The translations under genes and the position numbers were made by a program. From contig CAYSEI010000005.1 of NCBI GenBank assembly GCA_964430265.1, forward strand, positions 14,784-78,783: a stretch of DNA of 64,000 nucleotides. Direction: 5' to 3'. This document shows, in pieces, positions 2,442 through 46,225 of the stretch; positions within the stretch are counted from its first letter, which is position 1, and every line of letters starts with the position of its first letter. The stretch is from an uncultured Pseudomonadales bacterium (GTDB lineage: Bacteria > Patescibacteriota > Microgenomatia > UBA1400 > CAYXSR01). Below the pieces are notes generated by a model. That model saw nothing but the letters and a program-made list of their open reading frames with translations. It had not been told where the DNA came from and made no database searches.

Positions 2442-2975
2442 CTATATCTTCCCATTTCTAAAATGGGTCCTACGTATAGTCTCTGAGGATGTTAAAAACT
2501 TTGGGATTTTCTGTTCGTTTATCCGATAAGATATTCTGGCAATTTTTTCAATTCCTTCCAATTTTAAGTGGATTTTCTCTTCAACCATAAGTTGAACCAC
2601 CTCAGAAAAAAGATCAAAGGACTTTGCTTTGTAGGTCCTTAATCTATTTTTCTTAAAAAACGGAATTATCTTTTTGCTCAGATCTTTAAGACTTCTAACA
2701 CAATATCTGTGTAAGTCTTCTTTGTGATTGTCATGTCTTCGATTAATAAAAATTCTCCCACATCTAAAATAGTCTTTTACTATTTCTAATGCTTTAAAAC
2801 TCTTTTCGCCTTGCGTTAAAACAAATTCTGGCATTACTTGCCAGCCAAGACGAGTAGTACGATTTTTATTAATAGAAACACAAAAACAACCATCTCCATC
2901 GGTAAAACCAACAATCCATCCTTCAAGCTTTAACCTTTCCTGCTGATTGTCCGCACTTGAATCATTTTCACTCAT
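2442..2975 (-). CDS. LAGLIDADG homing endonuclease (intron-encoded)
   Basis: 177 aa ORF with GWIVGFTDGDGCFCVSI (canonical LAGLIDADG block); embedded in 23S. Confidence 0.75.
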   Translation of the reverse strand: MSENDSSADNQQERLKLEGWIVGFTDGDGCFCVSINKNRTTRLGWQVMPEFVLTQGEKSFKALEIVKDYFRCGRIFINRRHDNHKEDLHRYCVRSLKDLSKKIIPFFKKNRLRTYKAKSFDLFSEVVQLMVEEKIHLKLEGIEKIARISYRINEQKIPKFLTSSETIRRTHFRNGKI

Positions 2976-4532
2976 AATTAAGTAAAATCTAGCACATAGT
3001 TATGAGTAGATCAAGATACACGGAGTTTCCAGCATATAGTAGGATTTTACTATGGCAGCGAATTCTACCATAGAACAGTTATAGTTACTGCTGCCGTTCA
3101 CCGGAGCTTATACCAAAGGCTATCTTACAAAGTAAGACCACCCTCAGCACTTAACTTACCGGCACTGGGCAGGTATCAGCCCCTATACATCCTCTTTCGA
3201 GTTAGCAGAGACCTGTGTTTTTGTTAAACAGTCGCTTGGAAATCTTTAGCTGCGACTTTCCTTATGCAAGCACAAGGAAAGTAGGGCATCTTCCGAAGTT
3301 ACGCCCAGCTTGATTGCCGAGTTCCTTGGAAATAGTTCTCTCGCTCATCTTCCCATTCTCAGGGTGTCCACCAGTGTCGGTAATGAGGTACGGTTTCTGT
3401 TCTTCCTCCTTACGACGCTTTTCCCGGATGCAGAATTGTTTCAACTCATCTCCTTGAAACAAGGAAATTTGCATTCGTTACTCAACATTAACGTCACTAC
3501 GGATTTACCTATAGTGACTGTTTTGTAGCTTAGACTCGGCAACTTCATCGCCGAGCTTGAATTGTCCCGCATCGTCACGCCTTAAGTAATATCGCAAAAA
3601 CAGAAGTACAGGAATATTAACCTGTTGTCCATCGACTACGCCGTTTGGCCTCGCCTTAGGACCGACTAACCCAACGCCGACGAACGTTGCGTTGGAAACC
3701 TTGGACATTACGATGTTCTGGATTCTCACCAGAATTTCGTTACTCATACCGGCATTCTCGCATCTGACAACTCCATCCCTAGCTCACGCCGGAACTTCAA
3801 TGTCGTCAGATCGCTCCCCTACCGCAGGCTACTATCCGAAGATAATAACCTACCCCTATTTTCGGTCCAGTACTTATTCTCATTAAATCTTAGGCGCCAC
3901 AAATCCTAGACCAGTGAGCTGTTACGCTTTCTTTCAAGGATGGCTGCTTCTAAGCCGACCTCCTGGCTGTCTGAGATTTATGACTTCCTTTTACTTAGTA
4001 CTGAGTTAGAGACCTTAAATGAGGGTCTGGGATGTTTCCCTTTCGCAACTGGAGCTTAGCCCCCAGTCACTGAGTGCACTAATCTTCACAAGAGTATTCG
4101 GAGTTTGGTTGATTACAGGAACTTGAAAGCTCCTGCAACCATCCAGTGCTCTACCTCTCTAGTTTAAATTAGAACCCTATACCTAAATATATTTCGGGGA
4201 GAACCAGCTATCTCCGAGCTCGATTAGCATGTTACTACGACCCACAGATCATCTTAAGCATTTGCATTTGCCACAAGTTCGGGCTTCCCCCTGGCTTTCG
4301 CCAGAGTTCACCCTGTCCATGGGTAGCTCGCCCGGTTTCGGGTCTTTTGAATTGCGCTGAACGCCTTATTCAGACTCGGTTTCCCTACGCCTTCACTACA
4401 GAGTAGTTTAGACTCGCACTAATTCAAAAACTCGCCGGTTCATTCTTCAATAGGCACGCCATCACCCACGATAAATCGGGGCTCTGACCGCTTGTTAGCA
4501 AACAGTTTCAGATTCTATTTCACTCCCCTCCC

Positions 4533-4566
<34 letters not shown>

Positions 4567-5183
4567 ACACTATCGGTGATTTTCTGTATTTAGCCTTGGG
4601 AGAGTGGTTCTCCCGGATTCCCACAAAAGTTGCATCAATCGTGGTACTCAGGAACTTTACACTGTCGTAATCAATTTTTGGGTACGGGACGTTCGCCCTC
4701 TTTGGTTGTTCAATTCCGGAACATTCCCCTAATTTTTCCGACATAAAAGTAAAGCCCTGCAACCCCAGCCGATATGGCTGGTTTGGGCTGTTCCGTTTTC
4801 GCTCGTCGCTACTAACGGAATCGATTTTCTTTCTCTTCCTCCAGGTACTAAGATATTTCAGTTCCCTGGGTTATCTCCTAACTACCTATGTATTCAGTAG
4901 TTGGTGTCAAGGCTTTACAGCCAAGACAGGTTTCCCCATTCGGATACCACCGGATCAAAGCTTTTTTGGCAGCTCCCCGGCGCTTTTCGCAGCCTAGTGC
5001 GTCCTTCATCGTCAGAAAATCCCATAGGCATTCACTGTTTGCTTTAATTGGAATAATTAACTAAAAAATCATTCCATCTATTCCACCTGACGGCGGACAC
5101 TAAATTGTTTTGAAAACAAAACAAGATAGGTTAGATAAGCAATCTCTTCACTTTTCAAAGAGCAATCCAAAGTTTAATTTGGG

Positions 5184-15693: not shown

Positions 15694-17204
<1,511 letters not shown>

Positions 17205-31519: not shown

Positions 31520-31879
31520 TTACTCTTTTATAAACACATTCAACCATTTTTCCCAGTTAGGAAGATTTTGTTTTTCTTCTTCTCCCAAATGTTTATCTGT
31601 TAACTCTAGTTCTTCCGGAAGAATTATTACAGTTTCGTCTGGCTTTGCCATTCCTAATTTATCTCTAATTTCTTTCTCAAGATAATAATCATTTTTACCG
31701 TCTTTTTGCTGTTTTTTAAGTTTTTCGTTCTCTTCTACTATTGCTGCTAATTTTTTTTCCGCATCCTCTAAACGTTGTCCTGCATTCATTAAACGATATA
31801 TATCCTTGCTAACATTAAAAATTAACAGTAATATCAAGCAAATAGATAAATAGTAAGTAGTTTTTTTTATAATTGACAT
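31520..31879 (-). CDS. ftsB: Cell division protein FtsB/DivIC family (septum formation initiator)
   Basis: N-terminal TM, coiled coil, conserved YYLEKEIRDKLGMAKPDETVI block. Confidence 0.65.
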   Translation of the reverse strand: MSIIKKTTYYLSICLILLLIFNVSKDIYRLMNAGQRLEDAEKKLAAIVEENEKLKKQQKDGKNDYYLEKEIRDKLGMAKPDETVIILPEELELTDKHLGEEEKQNLPNWEKWLNVFIKE

Positions 31880-31943: not shown

Positions 31944-32819
31944 ATGAACGAAAATATAATCACAATTGAACTAGCCTATAAAAAATTTCTAGATTATTTA
32001 AAAGATATTGGCCGCAGCCACTCTACTATCTTAGCATATGGTGCAGACCTGCGACAATTAAAACACTCTCTAGAAAAAAGAGGGAAAAATCAAATAGAAG
32101 AAATTAATATTGAAGATCTGCGCAATTTTAAAAAAGAACTCAAAGAAGATAAAGGTTTCTCCCCTAAAACAATCTCCAGAAAAATTAACTCCATGCGAAC
32201 TTTTTTCCGTTTTTTAATTAAAGAAGGGCTTGTCGAAGAAAACTTGGCAAAAGAGCTTGAACAACCGGAAATTAAAGTTAAACCGCCTAATTTTCTTTCT
32301 AAAACCGAGTACCGTGCTCTAAGAGATGCTTGTAGAAATGATAAAAGAATTTTTGCAATTGTTGAACTTTTACTTCAAACCGGAGTAAGAGTTGGCGAGA
32401 TCACCAACATTCGTGTTACTGATGTAGGGAAAAATTATCTTTATATCCGTCCGCACGGCAAATACAAAGGAAGAAAAATTCCCTTAAACAAAGCAGTTAA
32501 AAAAGCAATTGAAGATTATTTGGAAGAAAGGCCGGAAACAGATTCGGAATTCCTTTTTGTAACCAAAAACAACACTAAACTTTTAATCAGAAATATCAGG
32601 ACGATTGTGGACCGGTATTTTGAACAAGCCGGAATCAAAGACGGTAAGCTCAATGATTTACGTAACACTTTTATTGTTCATCAACTAAAAGCAGGTGTAC
32701 CATTAACAACTGTTTCACAATTGGCGGGACACAAACAAATTACTACAACTGAAAGATATTTGAAGCTTGCAAAAGCAACTAATCCAAAACCGCCCAAGTC
32801 AGAAATGGCAATTCTTTAA
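31944..32819 (+). CDS. xerC: Tyrosine recombinase, XerC/XerD family
   Basis: 291 aa; SAM-like N-domain; catalytic region LQTGVRVGEI...LRNTFIVHQLKAGVPL...LAGHKQITTTERYLK (R..HxxR..Y). Confidence 0.75.
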   Translation: MNENIITIELAYKKFLDYLKDIGRSHSTILAYGADLRQLKHSLEKRGKNQIEEINIEDLRNFKKELKEDKGFSPKTISRKINSMRTFFRFLIKEGLVEENLAKELEQPEIKVKPPNFLSKTEYRALRDACRNDKRIFAIVELLLQTGVRVGEITNIRVTDVGKNYLYIRPHGKYKGRKIPLNKAVKKAIEDYLEERPETDSEFLFVTKNNTKLLIRNIRTIVDRYFEQAGIKDGKLNDLRNTFIVHQLKAGVPLTTVSQLAGHKQITTTERYLKLAKATNPKPPKSEMAIL

Positions 32820-35143
32820 AGCCTTGCCCTTCTGGCAATTTCTGCTTCTACTACAGCTCTATCTTTTCCGTATTTTAAGCGTGAAAGCTGTTTAATCATT
32901 TCAGCTACTTTGGAATTTCGCAGTTTATCTATTTTATCCATATCTTTGGTTAAATCCATTGAAAACGGATGAACCGGCTCATTATCAACTATTGTCTTCA
33001 TGTATGCATGGTATTTTTCAATATTAATCAAATCCCGTTCCGAAAAAGTGGGTTGGAACTCATGTTGCAAATAATTGGCGTCCGTAACACCGATCCTAAA
33101 AGAAATTAATGAACCGACGTTTCCAAAAACAGCATTCTTAACTTCCTCTTCAACCTGACCGATAAACTGGTTGGCAACACACAAGTTTAGGCGATATTTC
33201 CTTGCTTCAGACAAAATTTGGGCAAAGTCGGGTGTAGCAAAGTTTTGAAACTCATCCACATAAAGATAAAAGTCCTTTCTTTCTTTTTCCGGAATATCCT
33301 GACGGCTCATTGCAGCTACCAAAATCTTTGGAACCAATATCAAACCCAGAAAATTACTCATTTCTTCCCCAATCCTTCCCTTGGCAAGATTAATCAAAAG
33401 AATCTTCCCTTCATCCATTACTTTTCTAAAATCAAAAGCAGATTTGGATTGACCAATAATATTACGCATCATTTTGTTGGTAATAAACCTGCCAAACTTG
33501 GAAACAATATAGTCCAAAACTTCCGATTTATGAAAGTCCGAAGTTTGCGCAATTTGATCAGTCCAATAACGCCGTACCATAGGATCTTTTACTTTAGGCA
33601 AAAGCTCCTGCACAAATTTTTGATCAGTTAAAGCACGCACAACTTCAACAAAAGTACTCCCGGGCTCACTCATCACTGTCAACATTGCATTTCTAATTGC
33701 ATGTTCAAAACGAGGGCCAATAATACCAGTTTTGTGCGGGTCATACAATTTGTACATCAATCCAATTATTGAAGAGACTACAAAATGCCTCTGATCTTCT
33801 GTTTCTGTTTCCAACATATTTAATCCTAAAGGTCTTTCCGTATCCGAAGGATTAAAATAGATCACGTCTTCTGCTCTTTCCGGTGGAATTAATTCCATTA
33901 TTTGTTCCACTGTATCGTGAGGGTCAATAAAGCAAACTCCTCTTCCTTCACGGATGTCTTGCAATGCCATTTCCATCATTAATTGGGATTTACCCACACC
34001 AGTTTTACCAATTATATACATATGCCTACGGCGATCTTTTTTAGCAATGCAAACCGGCCGTGTCATTCCCCGATAAGTGCTTTTACCAATATACAGGCCT
34101 GTTTTGGGAACTTCTGCCGGTGCTGGTGCTGATTTTGCCGCCAGCCAATGGATATGCGGTGTTTCAACGGATTTATTGGGCAGATGATACATTCCTGCCA
34201 GCTCTTCAGTAGATAAAACACTTTGACCGCCAAAAAGAGACTGGTAGCGATATATAAAATCAATCATAAAAAGCTTTTTAAACCAAATCTTTTTCTTTTT
34301 AAACCCATTTAAACTGGAATTAAATTGTGTAAAAGAAGATGTCAAATTTTTTAAATGTCTATCTGCCTGATGTTTTGTTTCTGAAGAAACAACAATTCTA
34401 ATTGAAGTATTAAAACCTGCTTTGCTGCATTTATTGTCAATTCTTTCCAAATCTTTTGGATCTACTTTGTATTGTGCTTCTTCCGGGTCTGCTTCCTTAC
34501 TTTTTATCTTGGAAATATAGCTTTGTCCGGAACTTTCCCACTTGCTTCCTGCCGGGCTGATAATAAATTGGATTGCTGCTCCTTCATTCTCTCCCATTTT
34601 TGCTAAAGACGAAGTAATCATACTTAAAGGATCTGTCGGAAGATCCCGATAAATTTTCAAAGGATAAAATGAGGCATTTTTCAAAACCAGTGAAGCACTG
34701 GCAACCTTGCCTTTTTCAGAAAAAAGATTATATTCTTCCACTTGTTTTACTTCAGCATCCGGATAAGCACCATGAATTTGTTTCTCAACCAAATCACGTA
34801 AGTCCTCGTGTACAGCAACATAAAAACGGATGTTTTCTTTACTGGCTACAATCTCAAAAGATAAATGATTTGGCGCTTTAAATTTTGATAAAAAGCCCGA
34901 TTTTTTAATTGAGTATAGCGAAGCAAACATTTGTTCTGCAGCATCAATTTTTGTTTCATTATCCCTGGGTACAGCAATTTGCAAAAGAACAAACTTTAAA
35001 GAACGCTCTTCCCTATCTTTAAATTTCATCCAAATCAAAAAAAGATAAAAAATACCAATTAACGCCAAAACCAATAAACCTGCAATAAATATCAAAATTA
35101 AAAATATTTTTGAATAGCTGGCTAATTGTGCTAATGGATCCAT
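32816..35143 (-). CDS. VirD4/TraG-like type IV coupling-protein family ATPase with N-terminal TM and a novel about 330-aa N-domain (paralog A)
   Basis: Walker A MYIIGKTGVGKSQLMM; Walker B FYLYVDEFQNFAT; downstream Q-x2-Q...G block NQFIGQVEEEVKNAVFGNVGSLISF matches the T4CP / TraG-D_C signature; 45-50% identical to the 720-aa paralog at 43224..45386. Confidence 0.55.
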   Translation of the reverse strand: MDPLAQLASYSKIFLILIFIAGLLVLALIGIFYLFLIWMKFKDREERSLKFVLLQIAVPRDNETKIDAAEQMFASLYSIKKSGFLSKFKAPNHLSFEIVASKENIRFYVAVHEDLRDLVEKQIHGAYPDAEVKQVEEYNLFSEKGKVASASLVLKNASFYPLKIYRDLPTDPLSMITSSLAKMGENEGAAIQFIISPAGSKWESSGQSYISKIKSKEADPEEAQYKVDPKDLERIDNKCSKAGFNTSIRIVVSSETKHQADRHLKNLTSSFTQFNSSLNGFKKKKIWFKKLFMIDFIYRYQSLFGGQSVLSTEELAGMYHLPNKSVETPHIHWLAAKSAPAPAEVPKTGLYIGKSTYRGMTRPVCIAKKDRRRHMYIIGKTGVGKSQLMMEMALQDIREGRGVCFIDPHDTVEQIMELIPPERAEDVIYFNPSDTERPLGLNMLETETEDQRHFVVSSIIGLMYKLYDPHKTGIIGPRFEHAIRNAMLTVMSEPGSTFVEVVRALTDQKFVQELLPKVKDPMVRRYWTDQIAQTSDFHKSEVLDYIVSKFGRFITNKMMRNIIGQSKSAFDFRKVMDEGKILLINLAKGRIGEEMSNFLGLILVPKILVAAMSRQDIPEKERKDFYLYVDEFQNFATPDFAQILSEARKYRLNLCVANQFIGQVEEEVKNAVFGNVGSLISFRIGVTDANYLQHEFQPTFSERDLINIEKYHAYMKTIVDNEPVHPFSMDLTKDMDKIDKLRNSKVAEMIKQLSRLKYGKDRAVVEAEIARRARL

Positions 35144-35146
35144 AAT

Positions 35147-35605
35147 TTATTTTTCTTTATAAGACACCCTACTGGGAAACATTTTAACAACTCTTAAACA
35201 CCATTCCGACAACCAACGAATGGAATCAGAAACTTTTTCCTTTAATCCTTCCTCTATTTTCTCTTTTTCCAATGGTAGAACAATCTTAGCTTTTACAACC
35301 TGAGAAGCTTCCATTAGAATCTGTCCGTACTGATCTTTAACCGGTCCTGGAAGTGTAATTTCCTCACCTTTTTCCAATTTTTCCATCCATCCTTCAACTT
35401 CAGGAGGCGGCTCAAATTCTTTTTTTTCTACTATTACCGGTGCTTGTTCTTTAAAAAAAGTTCCGCCCGCTTCTCTTTCTTTTGCCATTCCAGGCGAGCC
35501 ACTAATCTGAGGTTTTGGCGGAGGCTGTATTTTCTTGTCATCTTTTACAACCGGCTGCTGCGGATCATTGGGATCAGCACCAGAGGGCAGATTATCTCTC
35601 TTCAT
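35147..35605 (-). CDS. Hypothetical Pro-rich protein, translationally coupled upstream of ATPase paralog A
   Basis: 152-aa ORF ending 4 nt before the ATPase start; PPPKPQ and EPPPE tracts. Confidence 0.4.
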   Translation of the reverse strand: MKRDNLPSGADPNDPQQPVVKDDKKIQPPPKPQISGSPGMAKEREAGGTFFKEQAPVIVEKKEFEPPPEVEGWMEKLEKGEEITLPGPVKDQYGQILMEASQVVKAKIVLPLEKEKIEEGLKEKVSDSIRWLSEWCLRVVKMFPSRVSYKEK

Positions 35606-35668
35606 AAATATAATATTAACACAAATTAGTGGTAAGTATTAAGTAGAAAGCTGCAATTATTTGACCGC

Positions 35669-37078
35669 TTAAATCTCAAGTAAACGAATCATACTTGTTT
35701 TTCCCGGTGTTCCCCATGATTTCCCACAAACCATAATTATCTTGTCACCTTTTTCAATCTTTTCTTCTTTTTGATCAAGAAATTCAAGTATCCTTTTGAT
35801 CTCTTTATCACTTAAAGTCTTGTAATTAAAAAGATACGGTTTTACTCCCCACGTCAAATACATTCTATCCCTGACATTTTCATCGTGAGTAAATGCATAT
35901 ATTGGCATTTGTGGTCTTAATCTTGCCAGCATACTAGCAGTATGTCCTCCTTCGGTTAAAACCAAAAATCCTTTTAATTCCGGAAGATCCCTGCTTAATT
36001 GATAAGCTGCCATTGTCACAGCAGCAGTTTGATCTACAATAGGATAATTTTTCACATTATGACTATTGTTAAGAGTTTCGTTGTCCTCAAGAAAAAGTGC
36101 AGATCGTACCATCCAACTGACAGCTTCAACCGGATATTTTCCCACTGCTGTTTCACCAGAAAGCATTAATGCATCTGTTTTATCCAATACCGCATTACCC
36201 ACATCAGAGATCTCAGCACGCGTTGGTAAAGGTTCTTTTACCATACTTTCCAACATCTGCGTCGCTGTAATCACTGGCTTTCCCTGTCTTAAACATTTTT
36301 TAATAATTGTTTTCTGCCAAAAAGGTATTTCTTCCATTGGAGTTTCAATTCCTAAATCTCCCCGAGCAATCATAATCCCTTCAGAAACTTCCAGAATCTC
36401 GTCAAAATTATCCAAAGACTGTTGGGTCTCAATTTTTGAAATAACTCCTGCATTCATTTTTCTTTTACGTAATTCTTTTTTCAAATCCAAAATATCATTT
36501 TTATAACGCACAAAAGAAAGTGCAACATAATCAACATCATCTTTTTGCATACCGTTTAAACAATCAAAATCCTTTTCTGCCAAAGAAGCAATGTTTAGAT
36601 CAACACCCGGAAGATTAACACTTTTTCTTCCTTCAATTTTACCACCTTCGACAACTCTAAGCACTGCTTTTCCTTCTTTAATATCTATTACCTGAAATCT
36701 TAGCTTGCCATCGTCAATATATACGTCATCTCCTTTACGGATATCCGGGATTACTTCTTTGCGGTCCAAAAGAATGTCTGCCGGCTTTTCAGCTCCAAAA
36801 ATTACTTCCTCGCCAGGTTTGAATTCTTTCCTTTCCCCGGTTGCCCTAATTTCTGGTCCTTGAAGATCCATTACAGTACAAACGCTTATCCCTTTTTCCT
36901 TTGCTACTTCTCTTACCTTTGCAATTCTTTGGCCATGCCATTCACAAGTATTGTGCTTCATATTAAACCTAAACGCACGTACCCCCAAGTCTAACATCTT
37001 GGAAATAATCTGCTTGTCATCAGATGCTGGTCCGTATGTAACCAAAATTTTTGTTTTTAAGCGTTTCTTGTCTTTCAT
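35669..37078 (-). CDS. pyk: Pyruvate kinase
   Basis: TKILVTYGPAS...MIARGDLGIE...; 469 aa. Confidence 0.9.
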   Translation of the reverse strand: MKDKKRLKTKILVTYGPASDDKQIISKMLDLGVRAFRFNMKHNTCEWHGQRIAKVREVAKEKGISVCTVMDLQGPEIRATGERKEFKPGEEVIFGAEKPADILLDRKEVIPDIRKGDDVYIDDGKLRFQVIDIKEGKAVLRVVEGGKIEGRKSVNLPGVDLNIASLAEKDFDCLNGMQKDDVDYVALSFVRYKNDILDLKKELRKRKMNAGVISKIETQQSLDNFDEILEVSEGIMIARGDLGIETPMEEIPFWQKTIIKKCLRQGKPVITATQMLESMVKEPLPTRAEISDVGNAVLDKTDALMLSGETAVGKYPVEAVSWMVRSALFLEDNETLNNSHNVKNYPIVDQTAAVTMAAYQLSRDLPELKGFLVLTEGGHTASMLARLRPQMPIYAFTHDENVRDRMYLTWGVKPYLFNYKTLSDKEIKRILEFLDQKEEKIEKGDKIIMVCGKSWGTPGKTSMIRLLEI

Positions 37079-37713
37079 AAAAATACCTTTCTCTTCTCAT
37101 TAGAAATCTTATTAAACCTTTGAGGCCAATTAGATTTTACCTCAAAACCAGCTCTTTTTAAAGTTTTTGCTACTTTTCCCAAGGGAAAACCCCAAATATT
37201 GCTTAAACTACCAGTGTATTTTTTAACAAATCTGCCTCCTTGTTCCTGAATAGCATAGGCTCCAGCTTTGTCTTGCCAAGCTGCTTGATCCAAATATTTT
37301 TCCAATTCTTTTTCTTTTATTTCTCTAAAAAACACTTCACTTTTATCAATAAAACAATTTTTTTTACTATTCCAGAAAAAACAAACACTGGTAATTACTA
37401 AATGTTTTTTACCTGAAAGCTGATTCAAAATTCTTTTAGCATCTTTTTTATTGTCAGGCTTGCCTATTTTTTCCCAACTTTTTTGCTTTTTCAAAAAAAC
37501 CATTGTATCTGCACTAATTATCAGTACATTCTTTTTATTCACTTTTTGCTTAACTTCCCTTCCTTTTTTTAAAGCAATATTTTTTACCAGCTTTTTGGGC
37601 GGAATATTCTCTATTTTTTCTTCTATATTGCTAGGAATAACTTTAAAATCATCGATTAATAAATTTAGAAGTTCTTTTCTTCGTTTAGAGGCAGACGCTA
37701 AAACTACTTCCAT
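37075..37713 (-). CDS. maf: Maf-like nucleoside triphosphate pyrophosphatase (septum formation protein Maf)
   Basis: LASASKRRKELL N-terminus and ISADTMV block; about 200 aa. Confidence 0.8.
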   Translation of the reverse strand: MEVVLASASKRRKELLNLLIDDFKVIPSNIEEKIENIPPKKLVKNIALKKGREVKQKVNKKNVLIISADTMVFLKKQKSWEKIGKPDNKKDAKRILNQLSGKKHLVITSVCFFWNSKKNCFIDKSEVFFREIKEKELEKYLDQAAWQDKAGAYAIQEQGGRFVKKYTGSLSNIWGFPLGKVAKTLKRAGFEVKSNWPQRFNKISNEKRKVFL

Positions 37714-38018
37714 TCTCCGTTTTCAATCCTTTTTTTCAATCTTTCCAGCATTTCTAAATACTCTTTTTCCAAATCAACATCATTCTGCTCTGCTAAAACT
37801 AAAAGATCATATAAAACATCACACAAAGAATCTTTAAACCCTTCTTTTTGCCAGCCGGGTTTGTTACCTTTAGCTCTTTGCTTGGTTAAAACTGCATTGG
37901 CAAGCTCACCAATTTCTTCGACTAGATCAATAAAACGGATATTATTGTCCCAAGCTTTCCAGTTGTCGAATTTCTGATTAACCTTTACTGTTTCTTTGGT
38001 TAATTCTTTTAAATCCAT
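37704..38018 (-). CDS. MazG-like nucleotide pyrophosphohydrolase (small all-alpha NTP-PPase)
   Basis: 104 aa with EEIGELANAV...DVLYDLLVLAE EExxE/D motif. Confidence 0.65.
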   Translation of the reverse strand: MDLKELTKETVKVNQKFDNWKAWDNNIRFIDLVEEIGELANAVLTKQRAKGNKPGWQKEGFKDSLCDVLYDLLVLAEQNDVDLEKEYLEMLERLKKRIENGEWK

Positions 38019-38755
38019 TATTTTATTCCTTTTAATTTAACTTCTGGAAAAAAAGTTTCAATTTCTTTTTTAAATTCACTAAATTTTTTATCCGCTAATG
38101 GTTTTTTCTTATTATATTGATCTTTTAAGCAATTCTGTGGTCTAAACTTCTGTAAAAACCACACTTTTTCTTTTTCTTCTCCATATTGATTATACAAACT
38201 ATTTAATTCCTTTGCTAGTTCAAGCAAATTTTGTTTTTTGTGTATTCCTGGAACAACCGTTGTTCTGAATTCATGCTCAATATCTGACTGTAAAATTAGC
38301 TTAATACTTTTTTTTATATTATCAATAGGATAATTAATTCCCACTGCTTTGTTATAATCAGAAAAATTGTTTTTTAAATCCATGGCAATAAAATCAACAA
38401 CTTTTTTATTTATCATTTTACTCAACATCTTCGGATTAGTCCCATTACTATCCAACTTAACTTCAAACCCCATGTCTTTTATTTTCTTACAAAAGTCTGG
38501 CAAGTCATTTTGCAAGGTTGGCTCTCCTCCGGTTATACAAACTCCGTCTAAAATTCCTTTTCTTTTATTTAAAAAAGTAAAAAAATCCTTTTCCGGTATT
38601 TGAGGAAGTTTTTTTTGTTCAAAGTTTTTTAATGTCACAAGATCTTTGTTATGACAAAAAGGACAACGAAAGTTACAGCCTACAGTAAAGACTGTACATG
38701 CAATACGACCAGGAAAATCAATTAAAGTAGTTTTTTGCAATCCTCCTAACAGCAT
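38018..38755 (-). CDS. nrdG: Anaerobic ribonucleoside-triphosphate reductase activating protein (radical SAM)
   Basis: GCNFRCPFCHN (Cx3Cx2C), GGEPT; 245 aa; immediately downstream of nrdD. Confidence 0.85.
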   Translation of the reverse strand: MLLGGLQKTTLIDFPGRIACTVFTVGCNFRCPFCHNKDLVTLKNFEQKKLPQIPEKDFFTFLNKRKGILDGVCITGGEPTLQNDLPDFCKKIKDMGFEVKLDSNGTNPKMLSKMINKKVVDFIAMDLKNNFSDYNKAVGINYPIDNIKKSIKLILQSDIEHEFRTTVVPGIHKKQNLLELAKELNSLYNQYGEEKEKVWFLQKFRPQNCLKDQYNKKKPLADKKFSEFKKEIETFFPEVKLKGIK

Positions 38756-38766
38756 CTATTTTATGC

Positions 38767-38913
38767 TTATGAGACCTTGTATGTTTTTCTTTTATAGAAT
38801 TCTGCTTCTTTTCCCGGATTCCACTGGGAAACAGGTCTTAAATAACCCACAATGCGTGAATAAACTTCACATTTTGTGCGCTCTTGTTTCTTTTCTGTTT
38901 TTTGTGCTGCCAT
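38767..38913 (-). CDS. Mini-ORF (48 aa from the internal ATG) encoding the NrdD glycyl-radical C-terminal tail; +1 frame relative to nrdD
   Basis: MAAQKTEKKQERTKCEVYSRIVGYLRPVSQWNPGKEAEFYKRK matches the NrdD C-terminal consensus ..RRVCGYLG..RP.NAGKQEE..R that contains the radical Gly. The ATG lies 1 nt after the nrdD TAA and is preceded by AAGGAGGTG. The six-frame track extends this ORF to 38988. Confidence 0.5.
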   Translation of the reverse strand: MAAQKTEKKQERTKCEVYSRIVGYLRPVSQWNPGKEAEFYKRKTYKVS

Positions 38914-38914
38914 T

Positions 38915-41900
38915 TTACACCTCCTTTTGGTAGCCAATTTCTTGATCACATTTTGGACAAAACTTATGTTCTCCCTTAAGATATCCATGTTTGGGACAAA
39001 TGGAAAAACTTGGAGTCAATGAAAAATAAGGAAGACTATAGTTTTTAGCTATTTTTTGCACCATTTTTTTGACAATTTTCGTATTGTCCGGACTTTCTCC
39101 CAAGAAACCGTGCAAAACCGTTCCGCCGGTGTATGAAGTCTGTAATTCATCTTGATTATCTAAAGCTTCAAATATATCGTTTGTATAATCAACCGGTAAA
39201 TGTGTTGAGTTGGTATAAAAAGGCTCTGTCCTTTTATCATCAACGTCTTTTTGGTTTGCACAAATTATTTCATTCCCAAAATATTCTTTGTCAATTCTAG
39301 CAAAACGATATGAAGTTCCTTCGGCCGGAGTTGCTTCCAAATTAAACATTTGGTCAGTTTCCTTCTGGAAATCCAGCAATTTATCGTTCATAAAGTTCAT
39401 AACTTTTAAGGCAAATTCCTTTCCTTCCGGTTCAACAATTGTTTTACCCATAAAATTAACCAATGCTTCATTCATTCCATTAATCCCGATAGTACTAAAA
39501 TGGTTATGCCAGTATTCTCCGGTTCTTTTTTTAATATCGTTTAAATAATAACGGCAGTACGGATAAAGTCCCTTTTCTGTAAATCCTTCTACAATTTCCC
39601 TTTTAATTTGTAAGGAATCTTTTGCCAATTCCATTAATTCTTCTACTTTTTCAAAAAAATCTTCTTCTGTTTCAGCTTGGTATCCAATCCGTGGAAGGTT
39701 TAAAGTTACTACTCCCACTGAACCGGTCAACGGATTAGCAGCAAATAACCCCCCTCTTTTACGCAGTTTTTTATTGTCCAGCTGCAATCTGCAACACATA
39801 CTGCGAATATCTTCCGGATCCATATCCGAATTAACAAAGTTAGAAAAATATGGAATCCCATATTTGCGTGTCATCTCCCATATTGGTTCCAAAACCTTGT
39901 TGTCCCACTCAAAATTCTTGGTTACAGAATAAGTTGGAATTGGAAAAGTAAATACTCTTCCGTGTGCATCGCCTTCCATCATTACTTCAGCAAAAGCGCG
40001 GTTAAATTGATCAACTTCTTCTTGAAATTCTTTATATGTTCGTTCTTGCATTTTGCCACCAATAATTACAGCTTCGTCTTTAAATATTTTGGGAATTACT
40101 AAATCCATGGTTACATTTGTAAAAGGAGTATTTCCTGTTATAAAAACTTTTCCTTTTCTCCTAGCAATTATTGTTTCGTTTTTCGTATGTGGACACCAAA
40201 TAACGCCCTCATAATCAACCTCTTTTATTTCCTGGATATATGTTTCTTTGTGTCTTATTAAACGCAAAACAAAAATTTCCTTATTCCCAATAACTGTCGC
40301 TTTTCTTTCTAAAACCGTAAAACCATATTCACAATTTACTACCATCTCCTGTAAATCTTCTAATAAATTAGGATGTGACACAGCAATCTTACAATCTTCA
40401 AATCCATCCGCCTTTAAATATGTGTTAATAAACACACGTGATTGTTTTGTGTTCATTTTTAACATTTTATGAGGAATGAAATGTATGTTCTCTTTTGTTC
40501 CAAACCATTGGTGAATTGTTTTAGAGCTCTCTGCATTCAATCTAAGACGGTTTACGTCTTCTCCCAAAGATGCATGTTTGTATTCTGAATATTCAAACCC
40601 AAAATGATCAAGCAGTTCCTTAATCTCTAGATAATTTTTTTTATTTCTCAATTCTGATTGATAAATGCTGACACGATAACAACAACGATGCTTTCCTGGT
40701 CTTTCAATTGTCCCGTCTGCAATTATCCAAGCCATTAATTTAATTTGCTCATCACTAATCTCTGCTTTCTTATTACTATTTTTTCCACTTACCGGAATTA
40801 TTACAGGAGATTTTAATTTTTTAACTTCTTCTATTGGTTCCAAAACATATTTATCTGAATTAAATTTTTTACGTACAACTCTGTGTTTAGGAGAAATTAA
40901 TTGATCCTGAATGCGGTTTTTCAGGTTAAACATCTTCCCTTTGTATTTTCTTTTAAAAACACTTTCTACTTCTTGTTCTTCAATCTCTTTTTTTTCAAGA
41001 TTAAAGGTTTTAATTTTATCTCCCTTTTTAACTTCTTGGTAGTCTTTCCAACCTTCAGAAGTTAAAATCTCTGTATCTTCAGAAACACATTGAAAACCTA
41101 CCCGTGTAGGAACATTCATGTTATAAACAAACTCCTGCATAGCCTGTTTAACCTCTTCATATGATAAATTATCATAAGCAATAAACGGTGCCATTAAAGT
41201 ATCAAAATTAGCAACTGCAATTGCACCGGCAACTTCACCCTGCAAGGTATAGAAAAAGTTTACTAACTGTCCTAAAGCTGTCCGTAAGTGTTTAGGGGGA
41301 GAAGAATGTATTTTACCTCTAACTCCGCCAAATCCCCGTAATAAAAAGTCTTTTAGATCCCATCCCGTACAATATGCAGAAATCAATGCCAAGTCATGAA
41401 TGTGCAATTCCCCATGAGTATGTGCTTTTCTAATTTCTCGAGGATAAATCTTATGCAGCCAAAAGTTGGAAGAAATAATTGAGGCAACATGATTGTTTAA
41501 ACCTTGTAAGGAATAGGTCATATTAGCATTCTCTTTAACCAACCAATCTTCTTTTTCCAGGTATTTTTCAATTAGCTCATTTGAATCAACCAAACTACCA
41601 ATATCCCTCATCTTGCGGTGCAAATCACGATACAGTGTAAAGGCTTTATGAATCTTTTTTTCTTGGTTTTCAAGAAGCTTTTTTTCAACCAGGTCCTGCA
41701 CTTGTTCCACTTCCGGAGTAATTGTCTGATTAAACCGCTTTTCCATTTCATCCACTACCTGCTGAGACAGTTTTCTGATCTTTTTTTTATTCTTAAAACC
41801 GGCAGCCCTGCTGGCTAACCAAATTGCTCTTTCTATTTTGGCAGGATCAAAATCTTCAATTCTTCCGTCTCTTTTTCTAATTTTTTCAATTACACTAGTT

Positions 41901-41917
41901 AATGCTGCATCTGGCAT
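38915..41917 (-). CDS. nrdD: Anaerobic ribonucleoside-triphosphate reductase (class III) carrying a 320-aa intein; the reading frame stops just before the glycyl-radical motif
   Basis: N-terminal ATP-cone; class III RNR core; C-terminal C-x2-H...C-x2-C zinc ribbon; 1000 aa versus about 680 aa typical (intein inserted at C277). Confidence 0.8.
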   Translation of the reverse strand: MPDAALTSVIEKIRKRDGRIEDFDPAKIERAIWLASRAAGFKNKKKIRKLSQQVVDEMEKRFNQTITPEVEQVQDLVEKKLLENQEKKIHKAFTLYRDLHRKMRDIGSLVDSNELIEKYLEKEDWLVKENANMTYSLQGLNNHVASIISSNFWLHKIYPREIRKAHTHGELHIHDLALISAYCTGWDLKDFLLRGFGGVRGKIHSSPPKHLRTALGQLVNFFYTLQGEVAGAIAVANFDTLMAPFIAYDNLSYEEVKQAMQEFVYNMNVPTRVGFQCVSEDTEILTSEGWKDYQEVKKGDKIKTFNLEKKEIEEQEVESVFKRKYKGKMFNLKNRIQDQLISPKHRVVRKKFNSDKYVLEPIEEVKKLKSPVIIPVSGKNSNKKAEISDEQIKLMAWIIADGTIERPGKHRCCYRVSIYQSELRNKKNYLEIKELLDHFGFEYSEYKHASLGEDVNRLRLNAESSKTIHQWFGTKENIHFIPHKMLKMNTKQSRVFINTYLKADGFEDCKIAVSHPNLLEDLQEMVVNCEYGFTVLERKATVIGNKEIFVLRLIRHKETYIQEIKEVDYEGVIWCPHTKNETIIARRKGKVFITGNTPFTNVTMDLVIPKIFKDEAVIIGGKMQERTYKEFQEEVDQFNRAFAEVMMEGDAHGRVFTFPIPTYSVTKNFEWDNKVLEPIWEMTRKYGIPYFSNFVNSDMDPEDIRSMCCRLQLDNKKLRKRGGLFAANPLTGSVGVVTLNLPRIGYQAETEEDFFEKVEELMELAKDSLQIKREIVEGFTEKGLYPYCRYYLNDIKKRTGEYWHNHFSTIGINGMNEALVNFMGKTIVEPEGKEFALKVMNFMNDKLLDFQKETDQMFNLEATPAEGTSYRFARIDKEYFGNEIICANQKDVDDKRTEPFYTNSTHLPVDYTNDIFEALDNQDELQTSYTGGTVLHGFLGESPDNTKIVKKMVQKIAKNYSLPYFSLTPSFSICPKHGYLKGEHKFCPKCDQEIGYQKEV
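40130..41089 (-). mobile_element. Intein with a LAGLIDADG homing endonuclease domain, inserted in nrdD
   Basis: Starts CVSEDTEILT (block A) directly after ...TRVGFQ; HE motifs LMAWIIADGTI and YLKADGFED; ends ...VFITGN followed by a +1 Thr (TPFTN...). Confidence 0.7.
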
Positions 41918-41941
41918 GTTCCCTTTCTATACAATATTTAA

Positions 41942-42388
41942 TTATTGTAAATCATGAATTAAATCCTGAAATTCTCCAATGCTTTTAAATTCCAGAAAAA
42001 CACTGGCAAATCTGGTGTAAGCTATTCTGTCCAACTTTTTCAACCGGGTCAAAATCATCCTACCTATGTCGCTTGACGAAACTTCAGTAGATTTACGATT
42101 TAACAAACGCATTTCAATCTCATCAATTATGTCCTTTATTTCCTCTTCACTAACCGGTCTTTTTTCACAAGCTTTTTCAATTCCCCAACGCATTTTTTTA
42201 CGGTTAAACTCTTCAACTTCTCCACTCTTTTTTATTACATTCAAATCAATAACCTCTACACGTTCATAAGTAGTAAATCGTTTGCCGCATTTTTCACACT
42301 CTCTTCTTCTTCTGGTAACTGCTCCGTCTTCACAATCTCTGGATTCTAAAACACTTGTTTCTGTGCTCATGCAATATGGACACTTCAT
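41942..42388 (-). CDS. nrdR: Transcriptional repressor NrdR
   Basis: MKCPYC...C-x2-C zinc ribbon plus ATP-cone; 148 aa. Confidence 0.9.
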   Translation of the reverse strand: MKCPYCMSTETSVLESRDCEDGAVTRRRRECEKCGKRFTTYERVEVIDLNVIKKSGEVEEFNRKKMRWGIEKACEKRPVSEEEIKDIIDEIEMRLLNRKSTEVSSSDIGRMILTRLKKLDRIAYTRFASVFLEFKSIGEFQDLIHDLQ

Positions 42389-42410
42389 ATTTTTCTCCTA
42401 ATTTTCAAAA

Positions 42411-42458
42411 ACACTAGTCATAGTGTACAGTCTAAAGTTAAAACACTAGTTGTGGCAT
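42411..42458 (-). promoter_or_regulatory. Two candidate NrdR boxes upstream of nrdR-nrdD-nrdG
   Basis: ACACTAGTCATAGTGT (42411..42426) and ACACTAGTTGTGGCAT (42443..42458): imperfect 16-bp palindromes of the acaC..........Gtgt type, spaced 32 bp start to start. Confidence 0.35.
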
Positions 42459-42651
42459 GTCAACTATCATTTAATACATCAAAAAATATCAGCAAGTAAA
42501 ATTTTTACAGAAGGAGCTTCTCAATAACAAAAACACTACTTTTTGCTACCAAAAATTCGCTTTTCATTTTCCGGATTCTAGTAAAAAATTAAAGTGTGAA
42601 AAAATGTACTCAAATAATTAAATTTTACTTATATTATAAATATATTTAAAT

Positions 42652-43227
42652 CTACCAATTTTGTGCCTTTTTTTCTAACCTCTGATGTCTTATCTTTAAC
42701 CTCTGGTACAATTCTTCTGACATATTGTTTTCAAAATTTTGCTGTACTTCCCAGTGTTTTGCCAGTGCTTTTTCTAAAGTTTTTTTTATGTTGTGATTTT
42801 CTATTTTTTCGGCATTCAAAAAAGTTCTTTCCAAATATTTTTCCGCTTTGGTAAATGTGGTTATTGCCAACTGTTCTTTATTTTTTTGTAATAATTTTTC
42901 TGCTGCAGCTGCTCTTTTGTCTGCATAAAGTAAAAGCAGTTTTGTTTTTTCAATCTGGTTACGTGATAATATAAGTTGAACTCTGTCTCGAACCATTTTC
43001 AGCCAATACAAAGGGTGATCAGGAAGAATTCCAGGATAAGCAAGAGTATAATCACTTTGTTTGCTTGCTTGTTTTTGCAAATGTTCAACTTCCTTTTCCT
43101 GCGCTTTTATCTCCTTTATTCCTTTAATATCCTGTCTTGGAACCCGAAAAAAAGAAATAGCTAAAATTGCAATTCCCAAAAACAAACCAATAACTGAAAA
43201 AATAATAAACGTACTTTTTAATTTCAT
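42652..43227 (-). CDS. Membrane-anchored hypothetical protein, coupled downstream of ATPase paralog B
   Basis: 191 aa; N-terminal TM FIIFSVIGLFLGIAILAISFF; helical remainder; start overlaps the ATPase stop by 4 nt. Confidence 0.45.
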   Translation of the reverse strand: MKLKSTFIIFSVIGLFLGIAILAISFFRVPRQDIKGIKEIKAQEKEVEHLQKQASKQSDYTLAYPGILPDHPLYWLKMVRDRVQLILSRNQIEKTKLLLLYADKRAAAAEKLLQKNKEQLAITTFTKAEKYLERTFLNAEKIENHNIKKTLEKALAKHWEVQQNFENNMSEELYQRLKIRHQRLEKKAQNW

Positions 43228-45386
43228 TTTTGCTCCTCTATAGGTTTAGTGTAGCGTTCGCTTGATATACGTAAAGCCTTTTTTCTATTCTGATTTTTAC
43301 ATTCAGGTAAAGGCAATGTTTTTGCATAGAAGGGTTTACATGTTTTTCTGTTAATCGAAAGCCGCAGTAATATCTCAAAATTATCCAATGCCACCAAATC
43401 TTCTTCTTCATATCTTTCTCCAAACTCGCGGGACAAATAATGTGCATCTTGTGCTCCTACCAGAAAGGAAGCTAATGTTCCTACATTCCCAAAAATTGCT
43501 TTTTGCATGTCATCAGTTAACTGACCCATATATTGATTAGCAACAGAGATATTAAGACGGTATTTTCTTGCTTCGGACAAAATTTTTACAAAAGAGGAAG
43601 TGGCAAAGTTCTGAAACTCATCAACATACAAATAAAAGTCACGTCTTTTTTCTTCGTCCATATCGACCCTGCTCATAGCAGCCAACTGCATTTTGGTTAT
43701 TAGCATTGCTCCTAAAAGTGCAGCATTGTCTTCTCCAATTTTTCCTTGGGAAAGATTGATAATTAATATTTTCCCTTCATCCATAAATTCCTTTAAGTCA
43801 ATAGTTGAATGCGGATGACCAATAATATTTCTTATAGTTGGTGAATTAACAAACTGTCCAACCTTATTTTGTATTGGTGACACAGCTTGAGAACGCAGTC
43901 TTTCAGACATTTTATTAAATTCGTTATACCAGAAATTTTTTAAAGTATCATCACAATATTTATCTACCACTTTTTTGCGGAATACATCATCTGAAAGTAT
44001 TTTTAGAACATCCTCTAAAGTACTTTGGGGACGTTTTACTAATGTCAGCAGAGCGTTTCTAAAAATATATTCCATGCGCGGTCCCCAGGAATAGTGGTAA
44101 AGCTTATGAAAGATTGATACAATTCCCGAAGCTACAAGTTCTGCATGCTCTTTATTCCTCACCTGCAAAGGATTTAAGTGAAATGCTCGTTTATTGTCCG
44201 ACGGGTCAAGATAACAAACATCATTTAATCGATGTGAGGGAATATAGTCCAAAAGAATCTCGCAAAGGTCACCGTGTGGATCCAGAACCGCCATTCCATT
44301 GTTGCTCTGCATATCATTAATTGCCATATTAGCAATCATCGTAGATTTACCTACACCGGTTTTCCCAATAATATACATATGCCTGCGTCTATCTTCTTTT
44401 TTTATACCAAAGTTTGCTGTTTTGTTTTTATATTCAGTTTGAGCAAAAAAGTTGATTTTTTCTTTTTCTTCATCCGTAAGACCTTCAGAAGTCGGCAAAT
44501 CCTCAGGTGGTTCCCCAATTATCTTCCCACCCCAGGAAATATTGCGTATTTTAGAAAGTTTCTCATTAGGAAAATGGTATACTGTTGCCAACTCTTCAAT
44601 ATTTAAGTATTGATATCTTGGTGTCGGTTTAAACTCTCTATTTTTAATAGAATTCAAAAGCCTTTTTTTTAACAGCTTGGGTTTTTTTAGACGCAAGCTA
44701 TTTCCTTCCCCAAGTGTAAATGAACCAAAACTGCCTGCAAGATGGTTTAAAAACTTGGAGCTTGAATTTTCATTGACCGAAATTGCCAAAAGCCTCATAC
44801 CAGCATGCATCGCCTTGTGTGATATTTTTTGTGTGATTAACCCTGATTGGGGATGCGAGCGAGTACTCTGACCATCCGGTGAGGGAACTCCTTTGTTTAG
44901 TATTTTCCTGGCAGCATTTTCATAAGAAGATCCAACCGGAGCAATCACTAACTGAAAAAGCGCCCTGTCTTTAGGTCCTGCTTTAGAAAGAGTTCCCAGA
45001 AATGCAGCTAATGGATCAATCTCGCGAAAGTCATTATATGTTTTTAAAGGAAACCAATATGCTTTATCCAAAACCAACTGACCAAAATCAGCTTTTTCCA
45101 AGTCCCAATTTTTCAAGTAATCCTTTATTTTTGCATAATTAGATTTAGGATATTGAGCAGTTAATTGAGAAGTAAAATATGGCTCGAACTCTTTTTCCAA
45201 CACACTGTAAAAATGAATTGTTTGTTTTTCCAAAACAATTTCAAAAACTACACATTTACGTTTCCCAAATAATTTTTGCCAAAAAGAGGATTTATAATTA
45301 GACAAACCGGCAAAGATTCCGGCCATTGATTCAGGAGTCTCTTCACTATTTCGGGGAATTTTAATCTCAAGAATATTTTTTTCCAT
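43224..45386 (-). CDS. VirD4/TraG-like type IV coupling-protein family ATPase with a novel N-domain (paralog B)
   Basis: MYIIGKTGVGKSTMIA Walker A; FYLYVDEFQNFAT Walker B; ISVANQYMGQLTDDMQKAIFGNVGTLASF block; N-domain homologous to paralog A but without an N-terminal TM. Confidence 0.55.
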   Translation of the reverse strand: MEKNILEIKIPRNSEETPESMAGIFAGLSNYKSSFWQKLFGKRKCVVFEIVLEKQTIHFYSVLEKEFEPYFTSQLTAQYPKSNYAKIKDYLKNWDLEKADFGQLVLDKAYWFPLKTYNDFREIDPLAAFLGTLSKAGPKDRALFQLVIAPVGSSYENAARKILNKGVPSPDGQSTRSHPQSGLITQKISHKAMHAGMRLLAISVNENSSSKFLNHLAGSFGSFTLGEGNSLRLKKPKLLKKRLLNSIKNREFKPTPRYQYLNIEELATVYHFPNEKLSKIRNISWGGKIIGEPPEDLPTSEGLTDEEKEKINFFAQTEYKNKTANFGIKKEDRRRHMYIIGKTGVGKSTMIANMAINDMQSNNGMAVLDPHGDLCEILLDYIPSHRLNDVCYLDPSDNKRAFHLNPLQVRNKEHAELVASGIVSIFHKLYHYSWGPRMEYIFRNALLTLVKRPQSTLEDVLKILSDDVFRKKVVDKYCDDTLKNFWYNEFNKMSERLRSQAVSPIQNKVGQFVNSPTIRNIIGHPHSTIDLKEFMDEGKILIINLSQGKIGEDNAALLGAMLITKMQLAAMSRVDMDEEKRRDFYLYVDEFQNFATSSFVKILSEARKYRLNISVANQYMGQLTDDMQKAIFGNVGTLASFLVGAQDAHYLSREFGERYEEEDLVALDNFEILLRLSINRKTCKPFYAKTLPLPECKNQNRKKALRISSERYTKPIEEQK

Positions 45387-45427: not shown

Positions 45428-46225
45428 TTATCTCTCATGCATAAAATCATAAGGGCTTTTTAATTCTAGGTCTTTTGCTTTTTTTTGTGCTTCATATGCG
45501 TCTTTTTCTACTTCTAATTTTTCACTTCGAACAAGATAATGAAAAGCCAATCCAAATGTAGGAAGCAAAACTGGTTGCAAACCAGGACAAATACTTTCCA
45601 TAGATCTTAGAGCTGCAGCAGTAGCAAGAAATAATACAAAAAAACGGCGTGAGATCTTTTTCCTCTCAATATATTTCTCTAAATCCTCTGGCTTTTCCAT
45701 GGCTTGAATCAAATGATAGAACTCATGCTCAGTTGCTGTCTGAACCAATTGCTTATATGCTGCTATCCGTACATCCTCTGACATTTTCGAATATTCTTTA
45801 ACCTGAAAACTATCCATGTTAGAATAATTGAAGTTAATTTTTTCTAAGTTTGCACCAAGTCCAGCAATATTTACCATTAATCTATAATTTCCATTCTCTA
45901 TTGGCTTAATCGCTCCTCCTAATAACCCTTTAGGAACCATATTGATTACGCGATGAAAAATTTTTCTTAAACGAGTATCTTCTATTTGACTTTCACTTGG
46001 CTCACAAAGTTCAAAATCAACATGCTCATGGAAAAAGCTTTTTGCTTCCTCTCTATTTCTCCCAAAATGTTCAGCAAAATCTCCAAAACTCTCTTGAAGT
46101 CTCCTTCTTGAAGTTTCTATATGTATAAATTCCCCAGTGGAAAGACGCACTGTATCTTTATAAATCTTATTTTTTTCTTCTGCTTCAGCATGAATTTCCG
46201 AAGTTTCAATTCCTGCTTCTTCCAT
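45428..46225 (-). CDS. Hypothetical protein with an HExxH zinc-metallopeptidase-like motif, upstream of ATPase paralog B
   Basis: 265 aa; TEHEFYHLIQ (HExxH) and C-terminal hydrophobic helices. Confidence 0.35.
   Translation of the reverse strand: MEEAGIETSEIHAEAEEKNKIYKDTVRLSTGEFIHIETSRRRLQESFGDFAEHFGRNREEAKSFFHEHVDFELCEPSESQIEDTRLRKIFHRVINMVPKGLLGGAIKPIENGNYRLMVNIAGLGANLEKINFNYSNMDSFQVKEYSKMSEDVRIAAYKQLVQTATEHEFYHLIQAMEKPEDLEKYIERKKISRRFFVLFLATAAALRSMESICPGLQPVLLPTFGLAFHYLVRSEKLEVEKDAYEAQKKAKDLELKSPYDFMHER

Follow-up and report, generated by a model that had tools for sequence, protein, structure and literature searches.

Patescibacteria (CPR bacteria), which live attached to host cells, contribute a large part of bacterial diversity. 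Here, two paralogous ATPases of such a bacterium, A and B, are described. They are encoded in a 64-kb stretch of an uncultured member of Microgenomatia (contig CAYSEI010000005.1), and this whole stretch is called the window below. Both combine an N-terminal domain with a motor resembling that of the coupling protein (T4CP) of type IV secretion systems (T4SS). The described proteins to which they come closest are the T4CP, the T4SS ATPase VirB4, and the archaeal pair CedB/CedD.

According to Quinonero-Coronel et al. 2025 (PMC12102498), 5,713 homologues of VirD4-type T4CP are present in 2,918 of 3,035 Patescibacteria genomes. In the same survey, 2,417 genomes have VirB4 and only 103 have relaxases. 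That a genome has about two T4CP homologues, distant from virB4 and without a relaxase, is thus already published, and exaptation of these homologues is left open by the authors. If metagenome-assembled genomes are ~80% complete, a single-copy gene should be seen in ~80% of them, and at least one of two copies in ~96%. The observed fractions match these figures, and the counts are therefore compatible with universal presence of both VirB4 and the A/B pair.

In S. epibionticum, the T4SS cluster is essential and lacks recognisable coupling or relaxase proteins (Wang et al. 2023, PMC10633639). The T4SS of Patescibacteria, essential in the single species examined, has neither a recognised coupling protein nor a relaxase. 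The A/B family, with about two copies per genome, is an obvious candidate for the missing T4SS motor, or for a separate engine of macromolecule exchange. In archaea, CedB and CedD form a paralogous pair with transmembrane (TM) segments, VirB4-like N-terminal domains and ATPase domains. DNA import requires both of them, and they are proposed to assemble like VirB4, as a hexamer of dimers (PMC11868833).

The A and B of the window alone are a typical copy of a widespread, catalogued family. The family itself, its domain DUF8128, the two copies per genome and the idea of exaptation are already catalogued or published. What is added here is the VirB4-like fold of DUF8128 seen in a structural model, the placing of the motor nearer to TraD than to TraC, the old division of the family into two clades, the disappearance of the TM helix from B in Microgenomates, and the fission of the gene in other lineages.

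The two paralogs and their motor

The two genes and their parts are the following (aa, amino acids; ORF, open reading frame).

32816..35143, minus strand: paralog A, 775 aa, clade A, TM helix followed by DUF8128 and T4CP-type motor (ORF; Pfam TrwB_AAD_bind, DUF87 and TraG-D_C; tree)
35027..35107, minus strand: single N-terminal hydrophobic helix of A, residues 13–39, followed by the basic residues KFKDREER (Kyte-Doolittle)
34106..34999, minus strand: DUF8128 N-domain of A, residues 49–346 (aligned with the N-domain of B; PF26449 precomputed on an identical protein)
32963..34090, minus strand: ATPase core of A, T4CP-type by sequence, residues ~352–727 (Walker A at 379, Walker B at 630, NQFIGQ at 658)
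43224..45386, minus strand: paralog B, 720 aa, clade B, DUF8128 followed by T4CP-type motor, no TM helix (ORF; Pfam; tree; AF2 model)
44472..45386, minus strand: DUF8128 N-domain of B, residues 1–305, alpha/beta (AF2 model; Foldseek)
43317..44471, minus strand: ATPase of B, T4CP-type by sequence, residues ~306–690, with a helical insertion (Walker A at 341, Walker B at 589; secondary structure of the model)

The original prediction, made from the nucleotide sequence, described two chromosomal paralogs that share Walker A, Walker B and Q-x2-Q motifs and mutually homologous N-domains, with one copy lacking a TM segment. All of this holds. The two ORFs are exact and lie among housekeeping genes. 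A and B are 34% identical over ~705 columns (BLASTP, E 2e-142). Since this alignment starts at A53/B5, the N-terminal halves are homologous too; compared alone, the N-domains are 27% identical and have invariant residues in common. Shared motifs are GKTGVGKS (A379, B341), DEFQNFAT (A630, B589), NQFIGQ/NQYMGQ and FGNVG, and the catalytic motifs are intact in both proteins. Beckwithbacteria-like genomes encode homologs of A that are 70–81% identical and contain PF26449. For B, more than 2,200 homologs with the combination of PF26449, PF10412, PF01935 and PF12696 were found.

The paralog without a TM helix is B. A has one strongly hydrophobic stretch, with a 19-residue Kyte-Doolittle mean of 3.28 at residue 13, while every 19-residue window of B is at or below 1.21. 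The B ORF begins at the first start codon after a stop and is not extendable upstream, which excludes a missed N-terminal helix. Based on the positive-inside rule, A is predicted to have its short N-terminus outside and its motor in the cytoplasm.

By sequence, the motor is of the T4CP type, in line with the VirD4/TraG-like ATPase of the original prediction, and nearer to TraD than to TraC. TrwB_AAD_bind scores 41.7 bits with B and 23.4 bits with A against a Pfam cut-off of 20.5, and TraG-D_C scores 30.2 bits with B and 22.7 bits with A against a cut-off of 22. DUF87, the HerA central domain in Pfam, is also above its cut-off for the motor. The best NCBIfam matches are VirD4-like CD1115 (54.2 bits over the whole motor; cut-off 250) and then SXT_TraD (45.9 bits; cut-off 366). 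TOL TraD (29.4 bits; cut-off 648) and F-type TraD (17.3 bits; cut-off 521) score lower. None of the T4CP subfamilies is reached at its curated NCBIfam cut-off, all scores being far below. When the family alignment is compared by hhalign with TraD of F, the probability is 58% over 281 columns, extending from Walker A to past Walker B. The same comparison with TraC of F, a VirB4 protein, gives 6% and covers only the surroundings of the P-loop. The VirB4 family TIGR00929 scores 20.4 bits against a cut-off of 643.

The AF2 model of full-length B (pLDDT 89.3) superposes on TrwB-deltaN70 with a TM-score of 0.63–0.65 and a root-mean-square deviation of ~4.5 Å over ~418 columns. In the model, an all-helical insertion of eight helices (residues 412–537) lies between Walker A (341) and Walker B (589). 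Across 45 sequences drawn from both clades, Walker A, Walker B, one arginine and the QxxQ residues do not vary.

Clear placement within FtsK or HerA, which would have refuted the original prediction, is not what was found. FtsK_SpoIIIE (PF01580) has no Pfam match at E<=0.1 in A or B; some family members show weak matches to it at the level of the P-loop, the best with E 9e-4. HerA scores 16 against an NCBIfam cut-off of 970, its matches are weaker than those of T4CP, and HerA structures are matched at E 2e-12.

DUF8128 and the history of the family

The N-domain corresponds to Pfam PF26449 (DUF8128), which is precomputed on proteins identical to A (P0121) and B (P0001) and on all listed homologs. 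In a library clustered at 50% identity, its profile matches 4,890 representatives. The original prediction called the domain novel and unlike the TM domains of T4CP. It is an alpha/beta domain of about 300 aa, and with the thousands of members already catalogued it is not novel. No mention of DUF8128 was found in the literature.

Structure prediction of the N-domain of B alone gives a confident AF2 model (pLDDT 87.4, pTM 0.87). In a Foldseek search of this model against PDB, the top 12 matches are all TrwK/VirB4 of plasmid R388, with E 2.8e-6 to 1e-3, probability 1.0 and TMq 0.45–0.54. The next matches are ~1000-fold weaker in E and are generic double ferredoxin-like folds; the N-terminal domain of HerA is not matched by the model. 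The full-length model of B aligns with TrwK end to end over ~850 columns. As modelled, DUF8128 appears to have the fold of the VirB4 N-terminal domain. Homology between the two is undetected at the sequence level by a profile search against PDB sequences, by a permissive Pfam scan of 54 members and by hhalign against TraC of F. The Pfam family of the VirB4 N-terminal domain is never among the weak matches of family members.

The family is found in Microgenomates, Saccharibacteria, Dojkabacteria, Peregrinibacteria, ABY1 and Parcubacteria-type lineages. It belongs to the core genome of Patescibacteria and is not a remnant of conjugative elements. A neighbour-joining tree of 87 motor cores contains two deep clades. 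Clade A includes A of the window, its Beckwithbacteria counterparts, and the first paralogs of four of the two-copy loci, L052, L054, L058 and L066 (loci of relatives are numbered with the prefix L). Clade B includes all other sequences in the tree, among them the second paralogs of the same two-copy loci. The division of the paralogs of single loci between the clades indicates that the duplication predates the classes of Patescibacteria. L052 and L057 have the A-type and B-type genes in tandem, with overlapping stop and start codons; in L054, L058 and L066, two small genes lie between them. In the window and in the relative L166, they are ~7.5 kb apart with nrd, maf and pyk genes between them. 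The two deep clades, the tandem or near-tandem loci and this spacing suggest that A and B are a functional pair.

The TM helix has been lost in one lineage. None of the ~45 B-type orthologs from Microgenomates contains a TM helix. One is present in most unsplit clade-B proteins of other classes and in the N-terminal ORFs of split forms. These facts indicate that the TM-less B is a derived trait of the Microgenomates lineage.

The split forms belong to a large clade outside Microgenomates, in which the B-type gene is divided into a gene for the TM helix and DUF8128, followed by a gene for the ATPase. A first sample of 17 split loci (L051, L056, L060–L062, L065, L069, L071, L074, L076–L079, L081, L082, L084 and L085) came from a tblastn ranking against a fused query. 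A further 50 split loci, within L086–L165, form an unbiased sample obtained by a metagenome scan with the N-terminal ORF alone. In this sample, the two ORFs are in different frames at 34 loci and in the same frame at 16, and no locus is fused (0 of 50). The absence of fused genes there indicates that DUF8128 is an autonomous module, presumably docking onto the motor.

Programmed stop-codon readthrough was considered for the split genes, since all 17 loci of the first sample have both ORFs in the same frame with in-frame stops. This turned out to be an ascertainment artefact. Readthrough is rejected because the unbiased ratio of 34:16 is that expected by chance.

Gene context of A and B

The window covers part of the chromosome of a Microgenomates-type Patescibacterium, in a region of housekeeping genes. 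Pfam scans of ORFs of at least 100 aa across the 64 kb match enolase, iPGM, FtsH, RecF-like, Fpg, TrpB and TrpRS genes, as well as pyruvate kinase, Maf, NrdD/G/R, a solute-binding protein, VanW and two GH130 proteins. The window also contains 16S and 23S rRNA genes and four tRNA genes. VirB4, VirB6, VirB11, relaxase and competence families are not matched in these scans, and several ORFs have no Pfam match at all. The original prediction had likewise seen no relaxase or VirB4/B6/B11 gene nearby. Because several ORFs are without a match, small or divergent T4SS parts may remain in the window.

The immediate neighbours of A and B are the following.

31520..31879, minus strand: DivIC-family gene, next after the Xer gene (gene order beside A)
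31944..32819, plus strand: Xer-type tyrosine recombinase (Pfam Phage_integrase and SAM-like domains), convergent with A and overlapping it by 4 nt
35147..35605, minus strand: Pro-rich protein of 152 aa, partner of A, its ORF separated from the start of A by 3 nt (no family match)
42652..43227, minus strand: protein of the DUF5667 family, 191 aa, hydrophobic near its N-terminus; its gene shares 4 nt with the end of B (Pfam, E 4e-12)
45428..46225, minus strand: orphan HExxH ORF (HEFYH), 41 nt upstream of B (no family match; singleton cluster)

Each paralog was originally placed in a mini-operon with these small genes. The neighbouring ORFs are as described, and it is their conservation as units that does not hold. 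A homolog of the 152-aa protein (43% identity, E 1e-32) abuts the A ortholog in the Beckwithbacteria-level relatives L001 and L002. In L166, a 182-aa gene lies directly upstream of the A ortholog, in the place of the 152-aa gene. Conservation of this partner of A is seen only in close relatives; a large-database search, limited by its word filter, yields six close homologs of the 152-aa protein. The DUF5667 gene is kept downstream of B only in the two nearest relatives, L166 and L167, and at none of 45 further B loci from Microgenomates. In 80 sampled loci, neither the HExxH protein nor the DUF5667 protein has a homolog. In L166 and L167, the position of the HExxH ORF is taken by a DJ-1/PfpI gene. 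Conserved operon partners for B were accordingly rejected: among the +1 and -1 neighbours with Pfam matches, DUF5667 appears only in the window and these two relatives.

Low-complexity proteins rich in Pro, Gln and Glu, 106–588 aa long, are encoded directly upstream of clade-A genes in unrelated lineages. Such genes are 35147..35605 in the window, L052:889-1209, L054:1800-3413 and L066:1885-3651. No homology among these proteins is detectable.

Two other kinds of genes recur near clade-B genes. Outside Microgenomates, 18 loci have, upstream and on the same strand, a gene for a protein of ~350 aa that contains Sigma70_r4 and HARE-HTH domains; it is adjacent in 16 of them and two genes up in two. 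These loci are L051, L054–L056, L058, L060, L062, L065, L066, L069, L074, L076, L078 and L080–L084 (e.g., L080:3796-4875). SecD/SecF genes recur in 14 loci, mostly at -2 or -3 on the same strand as the clade-B gene. Neither kind is present in the window. The Sigma70_r4 and HARE-HTH protein was considered as a partner for the paralogs of the window and rejected, as it is missing here and, in Microgenomates loci, does not adjoin the family's gene.

Beckwithbacteria L001 and L002 have the same A-Xer-DivIC order, and in L166 the A ortholog is likewise followed by a convergent integrase gene. In Blackburnbacteria, a B-type homolog of 820 aa (L004 6001..8463 and L005 4547..7009) lies within the mraZ-rsmH-ftsI-mur cluster, between a penicillin-binding protein gene of the ftsI type and the mur ligase genes. 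This placement is seen in that single lineage and not in other loci.

Some features of the window lie outside the A/B question. The 23S rRNA gene (726..5058, minus strand) is 4,333 nt long against a model of 2,925 positions. Two ORFs of LAGLIDADG endonucleases (1403..2299 and 2442..2975) are inside it, and a third (113..670) is just past its 3' end. The extra length probably represents intron insertions with homing endonucleases. The 16S rRNA gene (15695..17203, minus strand) is ~10.6 kb from the 23S rRNA gene, with genes for GH39, cohesin-domain and unknown proteins between them. tRNA-Ala adjoins the 23S rRNA gene, and tRNA-Ile adjoins the 16S rRNA gene on the opposite strand. NrdD (38915..41917, minus strand), encoded between A and B, has 1000 aa against 679–681 aa in the close relatives L166 and L167. 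Its Pfam NRDD match is in two parts, the best stretch restarting at residue 596 (model position 156). The extra ~320 aa probably represent an intein; NrdD gave no match to an intein profile.

Possible roles and comparison with known systems

The role favoured here, tentatively, is that of a membrane-associated pair of translocation motors of the T4CP lineage, with VirB4-like N-domains, most probably serving a T4SS encoded elsewhere in the genome. We infer the oligomeric state, the co-assembly of A with B, the link to a T4SS and the substrate as follows. A would be tethered to the membrane by its one N-terminal helix, and B, which in Microgenomates seems to have lost this helix, would be soluble. 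The two would assemble on the cytoplasmic face of the membrane as hexameric rings, possibly as a VirB4-like hexamer of A-B dimers with A as the anchor. Driven by ATP hydrolysis, they would feed a macromolecule, either DNA or unfolded protein, into a channel in the membrane. The best candidate for this channel would be a T4SS of the Patescibacteria type (VirB3/4/6/8 and VirB2-like pilins) whose genes would lie elsewhere in the genome and include none for a coupling protein.

Several observations weigh against this role. Only 148 of the 5,713 T4CP homologues are near virB4, and in S. epibionticum the t4cp homologue is not essential while the T4SS genes are (PMC12102498). Redundancy of the two paralogs could be the reason for the latter. 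T4SS genes were not detected within the window, and a partner gene conserved across the phylum was not found among the sampled loci. The likeness of DUF8128 to the VirB4 N-terminal domain comes from one Foldseek search and one solved protein, without support at the sequence level.

A second possibility, rather doubtful, is a translocase pair independent of any T4SS, which like CedB/CedD would import or export chromosomal DNA or another polymer through a channel not made of VirB proteins. The channel could be ComEC, a type IV pilus-linked one, or an unrecognised membrane partner. The plan of CedB/CedD equals that of A/B: TM segment, VirB4-like N-terminal domain, ATPase of the FtsK/HerA superfamily, and two chromosomal paralogs (PMC11868833). 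The genes of the family are genomically independent of virB4 (PMC12102498), a DNA-binding protein is encoded upstream outside Microgenomates (the Sigma70_r4 and HARE-HTH protein of the 16 adjacent loci and the two others), and Patescibacteria are naturally competent and reliant on scavenged nucleotides (PMC12857230). Both A and B also match the NCBIfam model of CedD weakly, at E 1e-8. However, these matches to NF053655 reach 33.9 bits (A) and 32.6 bits (B) against a cut-off of 600 and are limited to the P-loop region, and the motor appears T4CP-like rather than HerA/VirB4-like. A CedA-like or competence gene is linked to the paralogs in neither the window nor the sampled loci. Competence of S. 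epibionticum depends on comEC and is not essential (PMC12857230).

Unlikely in full is a more far-reaching proposal, by which A/B would be a double-ring motor that spans the phylum and defines the lineage: a hexamer of A-B heterodimers, VirB4-like in build, with motors of the T4CP type and with A anchoring B. It could be a surviving intermediate between VirB4 and VirD4. Such a motor would be either the missing energising or coupling unit of the essential T4SS of Patescibacteria, or an independent Ced-like engine moving DNA between epibiont and host.

FtsK-like chromosome segregation or dimer resolution at the division septum is improbable. T4CP and FtsK are members of one superfamily. The gene of A converges on, and overlaps, an Xer gene with DivIC beside it, an arrangement shared in the relatives noted above, and the Blackburnbacteria homolog is inside a cell-division cluster. 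However, these Xer/DivIC and dcw links are each of a single lineage and are not among the recurrent neighbours in the 80 loci. FtsK_SpoIIIE finds no match in A or B at the threshold given above, and TM7x has a separately annotated ftsK (PMC10768705).

An ATPase of anti-phage or anti-plasmid defence, e.g., MADS-like, as the original prediction also suggested, is hardly credible and was already disfavoured: PADLOC mad8 matches the ATPase cores (E 2.5e-16 for A, 1.2e-13 for B) and HerA defence models match weakly, but the mad8 match is a domain-level one confined to the common core, which makes mad8 a relative of the T4CP/HerA-type motor; none of the three small neighbours scanned (35147..35605, 45428..46225 and 42652..43227) matches PADLOC, the remaining neighbours are housekeeping genes by Pfam, and near-universal, highly conserved genes in housekeeping synteny are the opposite of the patchy, island-borne pattern of defence.

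Returning to the translocation motor pair, the VirB4-like fold modelled for the N-domain suggests several hypotheses: hetero-assembly of A with B, docking to VirB3, VirB6 or VirB8 homologs, and Ced-like import of DNA. The modelled fold of DUF8128 might also serve as a data point on the divergence of VirB4 and VirD4.

A and B are a distinct variant of the known T4SS ATPases. With T4CP (VirD4/TrwB/TraD/TraG) they share the P-loop motor, Walker A, the DEF-type Walker B, QxxQ and the all-helical insertion, and paralog A shares the N-terminal membrane anchor. Unlike T4CP, which usually have a TM domain of two helices directly before the motor, A has a single TM helix with the 300-aa DUF8128 between anchor and motor, and B has no TM helix. 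Further, A and B are two ancient paralogs of the core genome without adjacent relaxase or T4SS genes. With VirB4 (TrwK of R388 and TraC of F) they share the order of an alpha/beta N-terminal domain and a RecA-like motor, and B, like many VirB4 proteins, has no TM helix of its own. They differ from VirB4 in a motor sequence nearer to T4CP, and Patescibacteria have a separate genuine VirB4 (PMC12102498). HerA and FtsK are alike in belonging to the ASCE P-loop superfamily. The closest architectural analogue is CedB/CedD of the crenarchaeal Ced DNA import system, likewise a chromosomal pair of paralogs that is not part of a conjugative element (PMC11868833). CedB/CedD differ in being archaeal, in having a CedA-type partner, of which no counterpart was identified for A/B in the window or sampled loci, in their HerA/VirB4-like motor, and in that each Ced N-domain matches only part of the VirB4 N-terminal domain.

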